DNA of 64,000 nucleotides, taken from assembly GCF_024502345.1 (NCBI RefSeq), contig NZ_JALDNN010000001.1. The stretch is one strand, 5' to 3'. The position numbers and the translations under genes are program-made. The notes under the pieces are model-generated. The model searched no databases, was not told where the DNA came from, and worked only from the letters and a program-made list of their open reading frames with translations. Within the stretch, counting starts at the first letter, position 1. Every line of letters starts with the position of its first letter. This document shows positions 4,075 through 62,754 of this stretch, one piece after another. Origin of the DNA: Escherichia coli. Its GTDB lineage: Bacteria > Pseudomonadota > Gammaproteobacteria > Enterobacterales > Enterobacteriaceae.

Positions 4075-4156
4075 TGTAGGCAGGATAAGGCGTTTACGCC
4101 GCATCCGGCATTTGAGCAGGATGCCTGATGCGACGCTGATAGCGTCTTATCAGGCC
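4075..4156. repeat. REP/BIME palindromic element
   Basis: Paired inverted REP-like units (ggataaggcgtttacgccgcatccggca / gcctgatgcgacgc...cttatcaggcctac) between cpxA and yiiM. Confidence 0.7.
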
Positions 4157-12947: not shown

Positions 12948-13190
12948 TGCCGGATGCGGCACAAGTGCCTTATCCGGCCTACAGGTCGGCAACAGTTTTA
13001 GGCCTGATAAGACGCGACATCGCATCAGGCATTGATTGCCGGATGCGGCACAAGTGCCTTATCCGGCCTACAGGTCGGCAATAGTTGTAGGCCTGATAAG
13101 ACGCGACAGCGTCGCATCAGGCATTGATTGCCGGATGCGGCACGAGCGCCTTATCCGGCCTACGGGTCGTGCATCCGACAACACCGAATT
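12948..13190. repeat. REP/BIME cluster, roughly 100-bp unit present in about 2.5 tandem copies
   Basis: Unit ccggatgcggcacaagtgccttatccggcctacaggtcggcaa...gtaggcctgataagacgcgac...gcatcaggcattgatt repeated between rhaA and rhaD. Confidence 0.75.
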
Positions 13191-22262: not shown

Positions 22263-23096
22263 TTAATTGCTCAAACGCTGCGGATGGGTATAAACCGTTG
22301 CCCGACCCGGTTTACAAAAACCTACCAGTGTCAGATTACAGCGCTCAGCCACTTCTACAGCAAGCGTGGTCGCGGCAGACACCGCAAACAAAATCTCTAC
22401 GCCGCACATCGCCGACTTTTGCACCATTTCATAACTGGCACGACTGGAAACCAGTACCGCACCTTGCTGCCAGCTTTCCCCTTCTTGTGACCGGCGGCCT
22501 AACAGTTTGTCCAGCGCCACATGGCGACCCACGTCTTCATGCCCGCCGACCAATTCGCCAGATGGCAACATCCAGGCAGCGGCGTGAGTACAACCAGTCA
22601 GTTGCCCCACTGGCTGAAAATCGTTGAGATGACGTAATGCATCATCCAGTTTGTTGAGATCAAACGTCTGGGTGAACGGTAGCGGCTGCACCGGTTTTCC
22701 GATGTCATTAAGTTGCTCCACGCCGCATACACCACAGCCCGTACGTCCCGCCAGCGCCCGGCGACGCTCCTTCAACCCCATAAAGCGGCGGCTGGAAAGC
22801 TCAATTTGTACTTCAAGACCATTACAGGAAGGAACGACATCCATGCCGAAGATATCGCGCGGACTTTCGATAATCCCCTCTGAAAGCGAAAAACCGAGTG
22901 CAAAGTACTCAAGGTCTTTGGGTGACGCCATCATCACCACATGCGAAATGCCGTTGTAGACCAGCGCAACGGGAACTTCTTCCGCGACCTCATCTAACCG
23001 TGGGTGTTGTAAATCATCACGCCGCCATAACTCAATTTGACGAACACCTGTGATATTTGTCACATTTTTGATTTCTTTTTGCTGTGTTTTTTTCAC
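22263..23096 (-). CDS. fdhD: Formate dehydrogenase accessory sulfurtransferase FdhD, 277 aa
   Basis: [59 protein letters not shown]... Confidence 0.9.
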
Positions 23097-23289
23097 TTTC
23101 TCTTAACCAGATAAGAACACACACACCAACATTATGGTATTCTGTTACAAACCCTTCCTGGATGGAGGGAAATTGAGCCAATTCTGGACCTTTGCGGCCC
23201 CTTCCGCAAAGAAAAATAACTCCCACTCCCTGCACACGCAGCAAGCGAATGTAAATGGGACGTGACAATGTCGAAACAAGGAGCAATCC

Positions 23290-26200
23290 ATGCAGGTCAG
23301 CAGAAGGCAGTTCTTTAAGATCTGCGCTGGCGGTATGGCAGGCACCACGGCAGCGGCACTGGGTTTTGCACCCAGCGTAGCACTCGCGGAAACTCGGCAG
23401 TATAAACTGCTGCGCACCCGCGAAACCCGTAATACCTGCACCTATTGTTCCGTAGGCTGTGGGCTGTTGATGTACAGCCTCGGTGACGGAGCAAAAAACG
23501 CCAAAGCATCTATCTTCCATATCGAAGGCGATCCGGATCACCCGGTCAACCGCGGTGCACTTTGTCCGAAAGGCGCTGGCCTGGTGGATTTCATCCACTC
23601 CGAAAGCCGTCTGAAGTTTCCGGAATACCGTGCGCCAGGTTCTGATAAATGGCAGCAAATCAGTTGGGAAGAGGCGTTTGATCGCATCGCCAAACTGATG
23701 AAAGAAGACCGCGATGCTAACTACATTGCGCAAAACGCCGAAGGCGTGACTGTTAACCGCTGGCTCTCCACCGGGATGCTGTGTGCTTCCGCGTCGAGTA
23801 ACGAAACCGGCTATTTAACGCAAAAATTCTCCCGCGCGCTGGGTATGCTCGCGGTCGACAACCAGGCGCGTGTCTGACACGGACCAACGGTAGCAAGTCT
23901 TGCTCCAACATTTGGTCGCGGTGCGATGACCAACCACTGGGTCGACATCAAGAACGCCAACCTCGTCGTGGTGATGGGCGGTAACGCCGCTGAAGCTCAC
24001 CCGGTCGGGTTCCGCTGGGCGATGGAAGCCAAAATTCACAACGGCGCGAAGCTGATTGTGATCGATCCTCGCTTTACGCGTACGGCGGCGGTAGCTGACT
24101 ACTATGCCCCTATTCGTTCCGGTACTGACATTGCTTTCCTGTCAGGCGTATTGCTGTACCTGCTGAACAATGAAAAATTCAACCGCGAATACACCGAAGC
24201 CTATACCAACGCCAGCCTGATAGTGCGTGAGGATTACGGCTTTGAAGATGGCCTGTTCACCGGCTACGACGCGGAAAAACGCAAGTACGATAAATCCTCC
24301 TGGACTTATGAACTGGACGAAAACGGCTTCGCCAAACGCGATACCACGCTGCAACATCCGCGCTGCGTGTGGAACTTGCTGAAACAGCACGTTTCCCGCT
24401 ACACGCCAGATGTGGTTGAAAACATCTGTGGTACGCCAAAAGACGCGTTCCTGAAAGTCTGCGAATACATCGCAGAAACCAGTGCTCACGATAAAACTGC
24501 CTCGTTCCTGTATGCCCTCGGCTGGACGCAACACTCCGTTGGTGCGCAAAACATTCGTACGATGGCGATGATCCAGCTGCTGCTCGGCAATATGGGGATG
24601 GCCGGCGGCGGCGTTAACGCCCTGCGCGGTCACTCCAATATTCAGGGGCTGACGGACCTGGGGCTACTGTCGCAGAGTCTGCCAGGTTACATGACGCTGC
24701 CAAGCGAGAAGCAGACCGATCTGCAAACCTACCTTACCGCCAACACGCCAAAACCGCTGCTGGAAGGCCAGGTAAACTACTGGGGCAACTACCCGAAATT
24801 CTTCGTCTCTATGATGAAGGCCTTCTTTGGTGATAAAGCGACGGCGGAAAATAGCTGGGGCTTTGACTGGTTGCCGAAGTGGGATAAAGGCTACGACGTC
24901 CTGCAATACTTCGAGATGATGAAAGAAGGCAAGGTCAATGGCTATATCTGCCAGGGCTTTAACCCTGTTGCCTCATTCCCGAACAAAAACAAAGTGATCG
25001 GTTGTCTGTCGAAACTGAAGTTCCTCGTCACCATCGACCCGCTGAACACTGAAACCTCTAACTTCTGGCAGAACCACGGTGAGCTGAACGAAGTTGACTC
25101 GTCGAAGATCCAGACCGAAGTGTTCCGTCTGCCATCGACCTGCTTCGCAGAAGAGAACGGTTCAATCGTTAACTCAGGTCGCTGGTTGCAGTGGCACTGG
25201 AAAGGTGCGGACGCCCCGGGGATTGCGCTGACTGACGGTGAGATCCTCTCCGGTATCTTCCTGCGCTTGCGCAAGATGTATGCCGAACAGGGTGGCGCGA
25301 ACCCGGATCAGGTGCTGAACATGACCTGGAACTACGCCATTCCGCATGAGCCGAAGTCGGAAGAAGTAGCGATGGAGAGCAACGGTAAGGCGCTGGCCGA
25401 TATTACCGATCCGGCAACCGGTGCGGTTATCGTCAAGAAAGGCCAACAACTTAGCTCGTTCGCCCAATTGCGCGATGACGGTACAACCTCCTGTGGCTGC
25501 TGGATTTTCGCCGGTAGCTGGACGCCGGAAGGCAACCAGATGGCGCGTCGTGATAACGCCGATCCGTCTGGCCTCGGTAACACGCTGGGCTGGGCATGGG
25601 CATGGCCGCTTAACCGCCGCATTCTGTATAACCGCGCCTCCGCAGATCCGCAGGGTAACCCGTGGGATCCGAAGCGTCAGTTGCTGAAATGGGACGGCAC
25701 TAAGTGGACCGGCTGGGATATTCCGGACTACAGCGCAGCGCCTCCGGATAGCGGCGTCGGGCCGTTTATCATGCAGCAGGAAGGCATGGGGCGTCTGTTT
25801 GCCCTCGATAAGATGGCGGAAGGTCCGTTCCCGGAACACTACGAGCCGTTTGAAACGCCGCTGGGAACTAACCCGCTGCATCCAAACGTTATCTCGAACC
25901 CGGCTGCACGTATCTTTAAAGACGACGCCGAAGCATTGGGTAAAGCCGATAAGTTCCCGTATGTCGGAACCACCTATCGTCTGACCGAGCACTTCCACTA
26001 CTGGACCAAACACGCGCTGTTGAACGCGATTTTGCAACCAGAGCAGTTTGTGGAAATCGGGGAGTCGCTGGCGAATAAACTTGGCATTGCCCAGGGCGAT
26101 ACCGTGAAAGTCTCCTCCAACCGTGGCTATATCAAAGCCAAAGCGGTGGTGACCAAACGTATTCGCACGCTGAAAGCGAACGGCAAAGATATCGATACCA

Positions 26201-26340
26201 TCGGTATTCCGATTCACTGGGGCTATGAAGGCGTAGCTAAAAAAGGCTTTATTGCCAATACGTTAACGCCATTCGTTGGTGATGCGAACACGCAGACGCC
26301 GGAGTTTAAGTCCTTCCTTGTGAATGTGGAAAAGGTGTAA
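23290..26340 (+). CDS. fdoG: Formate dehydrogenase-O alpha subunit, selenoprotein, 1016 aa with in-frame TGA (Sec) at 23878-23880
   Basis: ORFs 23290..23877 and 23926..26340 are in the same frame, separated only by TGA; Tat signal RRQFFK, Mo-bisPGD domains; combined length 1016 aa. Confidence 0.95.
23878..23925 (+). promoter_or_regulatory. Selenocysteine UGA codon plus downstream SECIS-like hairpin
   Basis: Immediately 3' of the TGA: ggaccaa...(loop)...tttggtc inverted repeat, positioned as expected for a bacterial SECIS. Confidence 0.6.
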
Positions 26341-26352
26341 CGGAGACGACAT

Positions 26353-27255
26353 ATGGCTTATCAATCTCAAGATATCATTCGTCGTTCCGCGACTAACGGT
26401 CTGACCCCCGCGCCTCAGGCGCGGGACTTCCAGGAAGAAGTGGCGAAACTCATCGACGTCACCACCTGTATCGGCTGTAAAGCCTGTCAGGTGGCGTGTT
26501 CAGAGTGGAACGACATTCGCGATACCGTCGGCAATAACATTGGGGTGTACGACAACCCCAATGATTTAAGCGCCAAATCGTGGACGGTAATGCGCTTCTC
26601 GGAAGTGGAGCAGAACGACAAACTGGAATGGCTGATCCGCAAAGACGGCTGTATGCACTGTTCCGATCCAGGCTGCCTGAAAGCGTGCCCGGCGGAAGGT
26701 GCAATTATTCAGTATGCCAACGGTATCGTCGACTTCCAGTCCGAGCAGTGCATTGGCTGCGGTTATTGCATTGCGGGCTGTCCGTTCGACATTCCGCGCC
26801 TCAACCCGGAAGACAACCGCGTCTACAAATGTACGCTGTGCGTTGACCGCGTGGTGGTTGGGCAAGAACCAGCCTGCGTGAAGACCTGCCCAACGGGCGC
26901 GATTCACTTCGGTACGAAAGAGTCGATGAAAACGCTGGCGAGCGAGCGCGTTGCTGAGCTGAAAACCCGCGGTTACGACAATGCGGGTCTGTACGATCCG
27001 GCAGGCGTCGGTGGTACACACGTCATGTACGTGCTGCACCATGCTGACAAGCCAAATCTGTATCATGGCTTGCCGGAGAACCCGGAAATCAGCGAAACCG
27101 TGAAATTCTGGAAAGGCATCTGGAAACCGCTCGCGGCTGTTGGCTTTGCGGCTACCTTTGCGGCCAGTATCTTCCACTACGTGGGTGTCGGTCCGAACCG
27201 TGCGGATGAGGAAGAGAATAATCTGCACGAAGAGAAAGACGAGGAGCGCAAATGA
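26353..27255 (+). CDS. fdoH: Formate dehydrogenase-O iron-sulfur subunit, 300 aa
   Basis: ORF with four Cys-x2-Cys-x2-Cys-x3-Cys ferredoxin clusters and C-terminal TM anchor. Confidence 0.95.
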
Positions 27256-27887
27256 AACGACGTGACACCATCGTGCGCTACACCGCGCCGGAACGTATCA
27301 ACCACTGGATCACCGCCTTCTGCTTCATCCTGGCGGCGGTGAGCGGGCTGGGCTTTTTGTTCCCGTCCTTCAACTGGTTGATGCAAATCATGGGCACACC
27401 GCAGCTGGCGCGAATTCTGCACCCGTTTGTCGGCGTGGTTATGTTTGCCTCGTTCATCATCATGTTTTTCCGTTACTGGCATCACAACCTAATCAATCGG
27501 GATGATATCTTTTGGGCGAAGAATATTCGTAAGATCGTCGTCAACGAGGAAGTAGGTGACACCGGGCGTTATAACTTCGGTCAGAAATGCGTTTTCTGGG
27601 CGGCGATTATTTTCCTGGTTCTGCTGCTGGTGAGCGGCGTGATTATCTGGCGTCCTTATTTTGCGCCTGCTTTCTCAATCCCGGTGATCCGATTCGCGTT
27701 AATGCTGCATTCATTTGCCGCAGTGGCGTTAATTGTGGTTATCATGGTGCATATCTACGCCGCCCTTTGGGTGAAAGGCACGATTACCGCCATGGTGGAA
27801 GGATGGGTTACCAGCGCCTGGGCGAAGAAACATCACCCGCGCTGGTACCGTGAGGTCCGCAAGATAACGGAAAAGAAAGCTGAATGA
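27252..27887 (+). CDS. fdoI: Formate dehydrogenase-O cytochrome b556 subunit, 211 aa
   Basis: [38 protein letters not shown]..., 4-TM b-type cytochrome. Confidence 0.95.
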
Positions 27888-28813
27888 GTATTCGCATAAT
27901 CCCGCAAGATGAGCTGGGTTCGAGCGAGAAACGTACGGCGGATATGATTCCGCCGTTATTGTTCCCTCGGCTCAAGAATTTATACAACCGCCGCGCCGAG
28001 CGTCTGCGCGAGCTGGCAGAAAATAATCCGCTGGGTGATTACCTGCGCTTTGCTGCGCTTATCGCCCACGCCCAGGAAGTGGTGCTGTACGACCATCCGC
28101 TGGAGATGGATCTGACCGCGCGCATTAAAGAAGCCAGCGCACAGGGCAAGCCCCCGCTGGATATTCACGTTCTGCCGCGTGATAAGCACTGGCAAAAGCT
28201 GCTGATGGCGCTGATTGCTGAGCTGAAACCTGAAATGAGCGGCCCGGCGCTGGCAGTGATTGAGAATCTGGAGAAGGCATCGACTCAGGAGCTGGAAGAT
28301 ATGGCCAGCGCACTGTTTGCCTCTGATTTCTCATCCGTCAGCAGCGATAAAGCGCCGTTTATCTGGGCTGCACTGTCGCTCTACTGGGCGCAGATGGCCA
28401 ATCTGATCCCCGGCAAAGCCCGCGCTGAATACGGCGAGCAACGTCAATATTGCCCGGTTTGTGGTTCTATGCCGGTGTCCAGCATGGTGCAAATTGGCAC
28501 CACTCAGGGTCTGCGTTACCTGCACTGCAACCTGTGTGAAACCGAATGGCACGTAGTGCGCGTAAAATGCAGCAACTGTGAACAGAGCGGCAAACTGCAT
28601 TACTGGTCGCTGGATGACGAACAGGCCGCGATTAAAGCCGAAAGCTGCGATGACTGCGGCACTTACCTGAAGATTCTTTATCAGGAAAAAGAACCGAAAG
28701 TTGAAGCCGTGGCAGATGACCTCGCTTCTCTGGTACTGGACGCGCGAATGGAGCAAGAAGGCTATGCCCGCAGTTCCATCAACCCGTTCCTGTTTCCGGG
28801 TGAAGGGGAGTAA
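27884..28813 (+). CDS. fdhE: Formate dehydrogenase maturation protein FdhE, 309 aa
   Basis: ORF with paired CxxC motifs (CPVCGS, CNLCE, CSNCE, CDDCG). Confidence 0.95.
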
Positions 28814-28984: not shown

Positions 28985-29095
28985 GCGTAAGATTGCCTGA
29001 TGCGCTGCGCTTATCAGGCCTACCAATAAACTTCAATATATTGAATTTGCATGACTTTGTAGGCCTGATAAGGCGTTCACGCCGCATCCGGCATG
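28985..29095. repeat. REP/BIME palindromic element
   Basis: gcctgatgcgctgcgcttatcaggcctac ... gtaggcctgataaggcgttcacgccgcatccggca between fdhE and yiiF. Confidence 0.7.
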
Positions 29096-52213: not shown

Positions 52214-52379
52214 TGTTTAATCCTTTTGGTTTAAACCAGATGAAGCATCTTACGCTTACGCCAAAAAAGAAAGCAATTAACGGTGTATGACTTTGCAGAT
52301 AATTGTGACAAAGCTCTCTATTGACGTAATCCCAGACTTATAAGGGAGATACTCGCATTGGTGTGCGCTCACGACAGGT

Positions 52380-52412
52380 AAAAAAAAACCTGCCAGCGAT
52401 GGCAGGTTTTTT
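52380..52412 (-). terminator. Rho-independent terminator downstream of typA
   Basis: cctgccagcgatggcagg hairpin flanked by a 9-nt A-run and 6-nt T-run. Confidence 0.6.
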
Positions 52413-52429
52413 ATAACTAAAAAACGAAA

Positions 52430-54253
52430 TTAATCGTCTTTCGGTGCGCGGTTAGCGCGACGACGATCGTTTTCCGTCAGGTGACGTTTACGAATACGGA
52501 TAGAGGTCGGAGTCACTTCTACCAGTTCGTCATCATCGATGAACTCCAGAGCTTGTTCCAGAGTCATGCGGATAGGCGGAACCAGAACAACAGCTTCGTC
52601 AGTACCGGAAGCACGCATGTTGGTCAGTTTCTTACCGGTCAGGCAGTTTACAGTCAGGTCGTTAGAGCGGCTATGAATACCGATAATCTGACCTTCGTAA
52701 ACTTCTGCACCGTGACCGAGGAACAGCTTACCGCGATCCTGCAGACCGAACAGCGCGAACGCGACCGCTTTACCCTGACCGTTAGAGATCAGTACACCGT
52801 TCTGACGCTGACCCACTTCGCCCGGACGTACGTCGTCGTAGTGGCTGAAGGTGGAGTACAGCAGACCAGTACCGGAAGTCATGGTCATGAACTCAGAACG
52901 GAAGCCAATCAGACCACGGCTTGGGATCACGTAGTCGAGACGTACGCGGCCTTTACCGTCTGGATTCATGTTTTTCAGGTCGCCTTTACGTTCGCCCAGC
53001 GCCTGCATTACAGAACCCTGATGCTGTTCTTCAACGTCCAGAGTCACGTTTTCATATGGCTCTTGTTTACGACCGTCGATTTCACGGAAGATAACTTTCG
53101 GACGGGATACCGCCAGTTCGAAACCTTCACGACGCATGTTTTCGATCAGAACAGACAGGTGTAGTTCGCCACGACCAGAAACGCGGAACGCATCAGCGTC
53201 TTCGGTTTCTTCTACGCGCAGCGCAACGTTGTGTACCAGTTCTTTGTTCAGACGATCCAGGATCTGACGAGACGTTACGAACTTACCTTCTTTACCGCAG
53301 AACGGCGAGGTGTTAACGCAGAAGAACATAGAAACGGTCGGCTCATCAACGGAGAGTGCCGGCAGCGCTTCAACGTTTTGCGTGTCGCAAACGGTGTCAG
53401 AAATGTTCAGTTCGCCAAGGCCCGTGATCGCAACGATATCGCCAGCTTCCGCCAGATCGGTTTCGATACGTTCCAGACCGAGGTGGCCCAGCACTTTACC
53501 GACTTTCGCGTTGCGGGTTTTGCCTTCGCTATCGATGATAGTAACCTGCTGGTTCGGCTTCACTTTACCGCGCTTGATGCGGCCAATGCCGATAACGCCA
53601 ACATAGCTGTTGTAATCGAGCTGAGAAATCTGCATCTGGAACGGACCGTCAAGGTCAACGTCCGGCGCAGGAACGTGGTCAACAATCGCCTGGTACAGCG
53701 GGGTCATGTCTTCCGCCATATCTTCGTGGTCCAGACCCGCGATACCGTTCAGCGCAGAAGCGTAAACGATCGGGAAGTCCAGCTGCTCGTCGGTCGCGTC
53801 GAGGTTAACGAACAGATCGAATACCTGATCCACAACCCAATCAGGACGCGCGCCAGGGCGGTCAACTTTGTTGATAACAACAATCGGCTTCAGGCCGTAA
53901 GCAAACGCTTTTTTGGTTACGAAGCGCGTTTGCGGCATCGGGCCGTCAAATGCGTCAACCACCAGCAGCACTGAGTCTACCATGGACATTACACGTTCAA
54001 CTTCACCACCGAAGTCGGCGTGCCCCGGGGTATCAACGATGTTGATACGGTAATCATTCCATTTGATAGCGGTGTTTTTCGCGAGGATGGTAATCCCACG
54101 CTCTTTCTCCAAATCGTTGGAGTCCATCACGCGCTCTTGGGTTTCGGCACGAGAGTCGAACGTACCGGATTGTTGGAGCAGCTTGTCTACCAGGGTGGTT
54201 TTACCATGGTCTACGTGCGCGATGATGGCGATATTACGCAATTTTTCGATCAC
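52430..54253 (-). CDS. typA: Ribosome-associated translational GTPase TypA/BipA, 607 aa
   Basis: [35 protein letters not shown]... (G1 motif AHVDHGKTT). Confidence 0.95.
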
Positions 54254-54399
54254 AACTTTGCCTCAGGCATTAGAAATAGCGCGTTATTGTACACGGATTA
54301 ATCGCACTACAAAACAGGATCACAAACATCCTCCGCAAACAAGTATTGCAGAGTCCCTTTGTGATCGCTTTCACGGAGCATAAAAAGGGTTATCCAAAG

Positions 54400-54545
54400 G
54401 TCATTGCACCAATATAGTGCTTAATGTTTCCATTGAAGCACTATATTGGTGCAACATTCACATCGTGGTGCAGCCCTTTTGCACGATGGTGCGCATGATA
54501 ACGCCTTTTAGGGGCAATTTAAAAGTTGGCACAGTTTTCGCTTTA
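54400..54545 (+). promoter_or_regulatory. glnA control region: NtrC enhancer sites and sigma-54 promoter glnAp2
   Basis: NtrC-type dyads tgcaccaatatagtgc, gcactatattggtgca, gtggtgcag...tgcacgatggtgcgc; sigma-54 element ttggcacagttttcgct (GG at 54528-54529, GC at 54540-54541, N10 spacing). Confidence 0.75.
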
Positions 54546-61159: not shown

Positions 61160-61228
61160 AATGGTTCGTCTTTTAGCCGTTTTATTCAGTATAGATTTGC
61201 GGCGGAATCTAACAGAAAGCAAGCAAAG

Positions 61229-61470
61229 AAAAAAGGCGACAGATTACTCTGTCGCCTTTTTTCCTGACTCATAACCCTTAACGGGTCTTACAATCCTTGC
61301 AGGCCGCCAACACACCCTGTTTTTCCATTAGCCGGAACAATCCGTGTTGATTCCATTTCCGTTTAATTACGTCTCCGGACGTTTGTCTTCCTGACAATCC
61401 TCTGTCTTCGCCTCCTGGCGCTCCTGACCCTCATCCTGAGTCATTGTTCCTGTTAGCGTCCTCGCTCTAT
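61229..61470 (-). ncRNA. csrC: CsrA-sequestering sRNA CsrC
   Basis: Minus strand carries many GGA motifs in short hairpin contexts (caggatgagggtcaggagcgccaggaggcgaagacagaggattgtcaggaaga...) and ends in a GC hairpin plus U-run (plus-strand aaaaaaggcgacagattactctgtcgcctttttt); location between yihI and engB as in K-12. Ends approximate. Confidence 0.75.
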
Positions 61471-62496: not shown

Positions 62497-62607
62497 AATA
62501 AAAAACGCCCCAGTCATTACTGACTGGGGCGGCTAAAATATTCAGCCAAATCCGATTACGTGAAGTAAAAGGTCTGAAAGATAGAACATCTTACCTCTGT
62601 ACCCTAC
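62497..62607 (-). ncRNA. spf: Spot 42 sRNA
   Basis: Reverse complement reads gtagggtacagaggtaagatgttctatctttcagaccttttacttcacgtaatcggatttggctgaatattttagccgccccagtcagtaatgactggggcgttttttatt, the Spot 42 sequence with its terminator. Confidence 0.88.
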
Positions 62608-62754
62608 GCGACTAACTTTACTCTTTTTTGTTCAGTTCAGAAAGCACTTTTTGTAATTTTTTTTCAGTTGTTGCATAGGAATTTCTAATAGCCATCACAA
62701 AACGTGACAGCTTATGTTGCTTACTTACGAAAAAAGGGCATGTTCAGGCGAATC

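Follow-up and report, generated by a model that had tools for sequence, protein, structure and literature searches.

Introduction

Decoding of UGA196 in the fdoG message by SelB and tRNA(Sec), by way of a hairpin downstream of the codon, has been established since the 1990s. The experimentally dissected prototype of such a hairpin is the SECIS of fdhF (Rfam RF01988), a gene in which Sec is encoded at codon 140, as against codon 196 in fdoG. According to a review (PMC8659212) summarising the work of Liu et al. 1998, SelB binding and UGA decoding depend on three features: an upper stem-loop set 11 nt from the UGA, a bulge at U17, and the bases G23 and U24 (hairpin nucleotides are numbered, here and throughout, from the U of UGA). 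The elements of fdhF and fdoG resemble each other closely: both lie directly 3' of a UGA that is followed by CAC GG, and they share an upper stem-loop that starts at nt 15, the bulged U17, the loop bases G23/U24 and equal distances from the UGA (PMC8659212). They differ at the apex. The fdhF hairpin has a four-nucleotide GGUC loop, whereas the upper hairpin of fdoG is 1 nt longer (nt 15-32) and ends in a GUC loop with a weak A22-U26 closing pair or, if that pair is left open, in the five-nucleotide loop AGUCU.

At the protein level, Zorn et al. (PMC3636253) reported that FdoG and FdnG both have Sec at residue 196, encoded by UGA. Mass spectrometry of E. coli MC4100 detected the peptide VU196HGPTVASLAPTFGR, cysteine was never seen at position 196, and in a selC mutant translation stops at codon 196 (PMC3636253).

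Here we analyse a 64,000-nucleotide stretch of Escherichia coli DNA (the window), in which a sequence-only reading had noted that fdoG is split by an in-frame TGA, with a hairpin following at the distance expected for a SECIS element.

Results

The fdo locus and its interrupted reading frame

Read in one frame on the + strand, positions 23290-26340 comprise 1016 codons with a terminal TAA; the sole internal stop is a TGA at codon 196. Direct reading of the sequence places a Shine-Dalgarno-like AAGGAG at 23278-23283, ahead of the ATG at 23290. A mechanical list of open reading frames gives two pieces on this strand, one of 195 aa ending in the TGA (23290..23877) and one of 804 aa (23926..26340). 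The two are in phase (23926 - 23290 = 636 = 3 x 212), which, together with the single internal stop, bears out the claim that the list divides one continuous frame. The interval 23878-23925, given in the sequence-only reading, corresponds to the space left between these two frames, and the TGA (23875-23877) lies just 5' of it.

The protein is 99.8% identical (1014/1016 aa) to FdoG of strain K-12 (b3894), 76.9% identical (781/1015 aa) to K-12 FdnG (b1474) and 35.5% identical to K-12 FdhF. The NCBIfam model TIGR01553 matches with 1572 bits (cut-off 814), and the Pfam domains are Fe4S4 (PF04879), Molybdopterin (PF00384) and the dinucleotide-binding Molydop_binding (PF01568). The N-terminus, MQVSRRQFFK, is a twin-arginine (Tat) signal with the RRQFFK motif at residues 5-10, and FdnG of PDB entry 1kqf aligns with the window protein from end to end. 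Of 5426 complete E. coli genomes, 5425 have a match to the 3.3-kb segment, with identities reaching 99.9%. The genes of the locus are as follows.

22263..23096, - strand: fdhD, accessory sulfurtransferase, 277 aa, divergent from fdoG (TIGR00129, 340 bits; same context in K-12)
23290..26340, + strand: fdoG, catalytic alpha subunit of formate dehydrogenase-O (translation, K-12 identity, TIGR01553, Pfam, 1kqf)
26353..27255, + strand: fdoH, beta subunit, 300 aa (TIGR01582, 478.7 bits; RefSeq annotation of the syntenic locus)
27252..27887, + strand: fdoI, cytochrome b556 gamma subunit, 211 aa (NF007924, 450.9 bits, above cut-off)
27884..28813, + strand: fdhE, accessory protein, 309 aa (NF002925, 604 bits)

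The gene order fdhD / fdoG-fdoH-fdoI-fdhE matches that of K-12. FdnG of formate dehydrogenase-N, on the other hand, is encoded in the operon fdnGHI (K-12 b1474-b1476), without adjoining fdhD or fdhE. The gamma subunit points the same way as the gene order: the FdnI model NF007558 scores 242.4 bits on it, below its cut-off of 339, while the FdoI model NF007924 passes. Judged by near-identity to FdoG, operon context and oxidoreductase architecture, the gene is fdoG and not fdnG.

The TGA falls on the selenocysteine position

23875..23877, + strand: TGA, selenocysteine codon 196 (only in-frame internal stop; faces X196 of 1kqf)

In alignment with FdnG of 1kqf the TGA column faces X196, the selenocysteine position, within the motif ARV-X-HGPTVASLAPTFGRGAMTN. 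FdnG has the same domain order as the window FdoG, and Sec196 of both stands within the common motif ARVUHGPTVASLAPTFGRGAMTN; the top matches of the PDB search were to 'selenocysteine-containing' formate dehydrogenases. In K-12 the TGA is found at codon 196 in both fdoG and fdnG, and at codon 140 in fdhF, where the related motif is ARV-U-HGPSVA. Furthermore, all 121 pattern-selected sites of FdnG/FdoG type (see below) have the TGA, followed in the FdnG-like frame by HGPTVA(S/G)LAP, and the window encodes exactly the Sec-containing peptide that was detected in the published mass spectrometry. Alignment to FdoG and FdnG thus puts Sec at the equivalent position, as the sequence-only reading had anticipated; displacement of the TGA from the conserved position was looked for, and the TGA sits on Sec196.

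A SECIS hairpin follows the TGA

Searched over the whole 64-kb window, the Rfam model SECIS_3 (RF01989) gives a full-length match that begins 3 nt before the TGA and scores 84.3 bits, where the gathering score is 63 (E = 1.4e-18). It is the sole SECIS hit in the window: the Rfam search found no other such element. Apart from the register of the lower stem (see below), the window element does not differ materially from this family. The fdhF-type family SECIS_2 (RF01988) was also considered for this element and was rejected, at 28.1 bits against a cut-off of 70. The parts of the element are listed below.

23872..23930, + strand: full match to Rfam SECIS_3 (RF01989), model positions 1-59 of 59, 84.3 bits
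23877..23887, + strand: lower stem, 5' arm, nt 3-13 (MFE structure; 10/10 pairs in this register for E. coli-type sequences)
23889..23906, + strand: upper stem-loop, nt 15-32, the putative SelB-binding part (MFE, Rfam, covariation, fdhF register)
23891, + strand: bulged U17 (left single-stranded by both the MFE fold and the Rfam consensus)
23897..23899, + strand: apical loop G23 U24 C25 (MFE, Rfam)
23912..23922, + strand: lower stem, 3' arm, nt 38-48, with G44 bulged (MFE)

The MFE structure of 23875-23925 (-14.6 kcal/mol) pairs nt 3-13 with nt 38-48, leaving G44 bulged. Above this lower stem, nt 26-32 are the partners of nt 15-16 and 18-22, which leaves U17 as a bulge and G23-U24-C25 as the loop. 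In the MFE and Rfam structures alike the upper stem-loop begins 11 nt after the UGA, so that the hairpin claimed for this position is present, at the SECIS distance and with the U17 bulge and the G23/U24 loop. Its folding energy is not significant (z = -0.76; 41 of 200 shuffled sequences fold as well or better). Because the energy cannot be separated from that of shuffles, energy alone is no proof of a hairpin. GC-rich coding sequence folds about equally well when shuffled. The covariance model and covariation served as tests in place of energy, and the model match is decisive. Considered jointly, sequence, structure and position match far better than chance would allow.

The window element is identical to the SECIS of K-12 fdoG and matches that of K-12 fdnG exactly over 23872-23942, a tract that starts 3 nt ahead of the TGA and runs past the end of the hairpin. 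This run of 71 nt, which spans the SECIS, is the longest exact match between fdoG and fdnG of E. coli – genes with 74.9% nucleotide identity – and the second longest is 36 nt. The identity extends to synonymous sites: where the two genes encode the same amino acid by a degenerate codon, 21 of 22 codons are identical between codons 193 and 217, compared with 58% gene-wide (binomial P = 1e-4). Among 5433 E. coli records, 5321 have a copy of the 76-nt element with 99% identity or more.

Covariation in the upper helix

To compare the element across species, the genomes of a one-per-species set were scanned with a sequence pattern; this yielded 120 stretches, 84 of them listed, and with the window's own site there were 121 usable sites. 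The search pattern fixed several stem bases, and invariance at these is partly by construction; it put no constraint on the loop, on the columns that covary, or on any of the 3' arm beyond its own end. Covariation was assessed in 68 distinct 59-mers from diverse Proteobacteria. The 66-mer of the window (6 nt ahead of the TGA, then 60 nt counted from it) turns up in 14 of the collected sites, with Yersinia aldovae first among them, and a one-base variant of it in 10 further sites, beginning with Enterobacter sp. Bisph1.

Across the 68 sequences every cell of the upper helix is paired (100%), and two of the seven pairs in this helix show compensatory changes. In alignment columns, pair 21-33 is GC in 49 sequences, AU in 15 and GU in 4, and pair 24-30 is AU in 50, CG in 15 and GC in 3; pair 25-29 alternates between AU (42) and GU (26). 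The upper-helix columns that vary are the wobble positions of Val, Ala, Leu and Ala codons. Cells in which both partners have changed total 33 where 7.6 are expected, a value that none of 500 shuffles reached, and pairing, 92% in register, falls to 26-49% when the partners are slid by 1-3 columns. An independent RNAalifold prediction contains the same upper helix.

The bases implicated in SelB binding are also constant. The U17 column is invariant in the 68 sequences, but the pattern itself prescribed this base, which is also position 2 of a Val codon. G23 and U24 were free in the pattern and are nonetheless invariant in 68/68 sequences, being supplied by AGU or GGU codons for Ser or Gly. The comparative evidence argues strongly that selection acts on the RNA element and not on the peptide alone.

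The register of the lower stem

Across the sample the lower helix shows one-sided changes only, together with an ambiguity of register. Imposed on the E. coli lower stem, the Rfam register includes two non-canonical pairs (A.C and A.G) and gives -3.3 kcal/mol, whereas moving the register by one base and bulging out G44 makes 10/10 pairs and gives -14.6 kcal/mol. The Rfam consensus register was for this reason rejected for E. coli in favor of the shifted one. Preference follows sequence type. Sequences with A9 – enterobacterial, and mostly with U42 and C45 – favor the shifted register (mean -14.6 vs -6.0 kcal/mol); those with C or U at position 9 – of Pseudomonas/Burkholderia type, with C42 and mostly U45 – favor the Rfam register (about -16.8 vs -8.0 kcal/mol).

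It may be that the lower stem of FdnG/FdoG-type SECIS elements exists in two registers, each co-adapted to its sequence type; we advance this small refinement tentatively, with somewhat less than even confidence, and the pattern is confounded by phylogeny. If true, the curated consensus would misdescribe the lower stem of E. coli, and the lower stem might tune the efficiency of Sec insertion differently in the two lineages. The lower stem is reported to add only modestly to read-through (PMC8659212).

Discussion

We regard it as virtually certain that the TGA at 23875-23877 is the Sec196 codon of E. coli fdoG, and that the hairpin in the mRNA downstream is a bacterial SECIS bound by SelB. On this reading UGA196 is decoded as selenocysteine, the active-site residue that coordinates the molybdenum cofactor in formate dehydrogenase-O. 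The mRNA from about 23877 to 23922 folds into the SECIS hairpin, the apical stem-loop of which would be bound by SelB – a specialised elongation factor – loaded with Sec-tRNA(Sec), the selC product. Bound SelB would tether the charged tRNA at the ribosomal A site as the UGA arrives, and insertion of Sec would then outcompete release factor 2. By analogy, SelB probably contacts the fdoG hairpin in the same manner as the hairpin of fdhF. No tRNA genes were found in the window, which places selC elsewhere. Of 5426 complete E. coli genomes, 5425 contain DNA corresponding to selA-selB of K-12 and 5424 contain selC; since the sel genes are near-universal in the species, it is very likely, at the species level, that this strain carries the machinery and is equipped for Sec decoding.

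Were the TGA a genuine stop, fdoG would be a pseudogene or a pair of genes and the hairpin incidental. The mechanical list of reading frames does split the gene, and the folding energy of the hairpin is by itself not significant. Against this, however, the TGA and its flanks are kept in 5425/5426 E. coli genomes and in 121/121 pattern-selected sites of other species, the 804 aa past the TGA keep the frame and, throughout their length, 77% identity to FdnG, RefSeq has a single CDS, and the Sec-containing peptide has been seen by mass spectrometry (PMC3636253): the notion of a genuine stop is in practice refuted. A subtler alternative accepts read-through but dispenses with SECIS and SelB, the UGA being read by, for example, a near-cognate Trp or Cys tRNA, and the conservation reflecting coding constraint on HGPTVASLAPTFGRGAMTN. 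The peptide that follows Sec is indeed strongly conserved, and constraint on it would fix codon positions 1 and 2, including U17 and most of the stem G/C. It would not account for conservation at synonymous sites (21/22 codons against 58% gene-wide, and the 71-nt exact run), for wobble changes that come in helix-keeping pairs (33 against 7.6 expected, 0/500 shuffles), or for the use of AGU or GGU for Ser or Gly – the source of G23/U24 – in 68/68 sequences at pattern-free positions. That cysteine is never found at 196 and that selC mutants terminate there (PMC3636253) also speak against SelB-free decoding, which we consider extremely improbable.

The 71-nt identity between fdoG and fdnG invites a narrower objection, namely that it records recent gene conversion between the paralogues and not selection on RNA. 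Both genes reside in one genome, with 75% nucleotide identity between them, and the tract is twice the length of any other. Yet the 66-mer occurs in 14 sites across more than one enterobacterial genus, with the one-base variant in 10, a distribution that conversion in a single genome cannot explain, and the changes seen in distant lineages are compensatory, not random. Conversion is unlikely, at a probability that is small although larger than that of either alternative above, and it touches one line of evidence only: the identity of the element as the SECIS of fdoG is unaffected.

The Sec196 codon and SECIS of fdoG are textbook matter, as the sequence-only reading had recognised: UGA196 and SECIS_3 are already in Rfam, RefSeq and the literature, and only minor side notes are new. 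The same reading had expected an automated caller to split the gene in two, which holds for a naive finder of open reading frames but not for RefSeq/PGAP, where the locus is annotated as one intact CDS of 3051 nt. The one flaw of that annotation is the name: in almost every record the PGAP label reads 'fdnG: formate dehydrogenase-N subunit alpha', likely because both paralogues fall under a single NCBIfam equivalog, TIGR01553, which is so named.

The finding is relevant to annotation only and opens no new question. Callers that treat TGA as a stop cut an essential catalytic subunit into fragments of 195 aa and 804 aa; where the Sec codon and its SECIS are recognised, a single selenoprotein of 1016 aa is restored.

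Identity of the gene and comparison with K-12

RefSeq/PGAP labels the gene at 23290-26340 'fdnG: formate dehydrogenase-N subunit alpha', as in essentially all E. coli records. Its true identity, however, is fdoG: the product shares 99.8% identity with K-12 b3894, and the genes downstream are fdoH, fdoI and fdhE. The label is likely to stem from a single NCBIfam equivalog (TIGR01553), which carries Fdh-N in its name and spans both paralogues.

The window's fdoG differs from that of K-12 at 25 nucleotides, five of which are grouped inside 7 nt (window 25353-25359; gene nt 2064-2070) and change residue 689 from Ser in K-12 FdoG to Lys. The one other amino-acid difference is Asp820 (Gly in K-12). 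Gene conversion from fdnG is ruled out as the source of the cluster, since the FdnG residue aligned with 689 is Gln.

In the closest of the genomes listed (NZ_CP027544.1; locus L001) the annotation treats fdhD (3165-3997 of L001) as a pseudogene with a frameshift, whereas the window holds an intact fdhD ORF of 277 aa (22263-23096, -). That genome also has an IS621-family transposase downstream of fdhE (10114-11094 of L001); unlike there, no ORF of such a size follows fdhE in the window's ORF list.

Small RNAs and repeats

Five known enterobacterial small RNAs match Rfam families at gathering level, and their presence is to be expected in this region of the E. coli chromosome. Three Rfam matches, two of them adjoining, are to naRNA4 (RF02564), a family based on REP-type repeats.

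Rfam matches in the window
4079-4156, +, naRNA4
13001-13068, -, naRNA4
13090-13160, -, naRNA4
29016-29058, -, ES036
52377-52445, -, STnc370
54335-54442, -, ES222
61217-61470, -, CsrC
62499-62617, -, Spot 42

Conservation and pairing of the SECIS element

The longest exact nucleotide run shared with K-12 fdnG (L003) is 71 nt (23872-23942) and falls on the selenocysteine codon and SECIS; the second longest is 36 nt. Such identity could reflect gene conversion or purifying selection, and the latter is favoured, since further genera of enterobacteria carry this sequence too.

In enterobacterial elements (A9/U42/C45, counting from the U of UGA) the lower stem (23877-23887 with 23912-23922 in the window) pairs best when moved by one position relative to the Rfam SECIS_3 consensus, which leaves G44 as a bulge. 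Elements of the Pseudomonas/Burkholderia type (either pyrimidine at nt 9, with C42 and U45) hold the consensus register. Across FdnG/FdoG-type loci of other species (L005-L119), FdnG-type SECIS elements thus seem to use two lower-stem registers.
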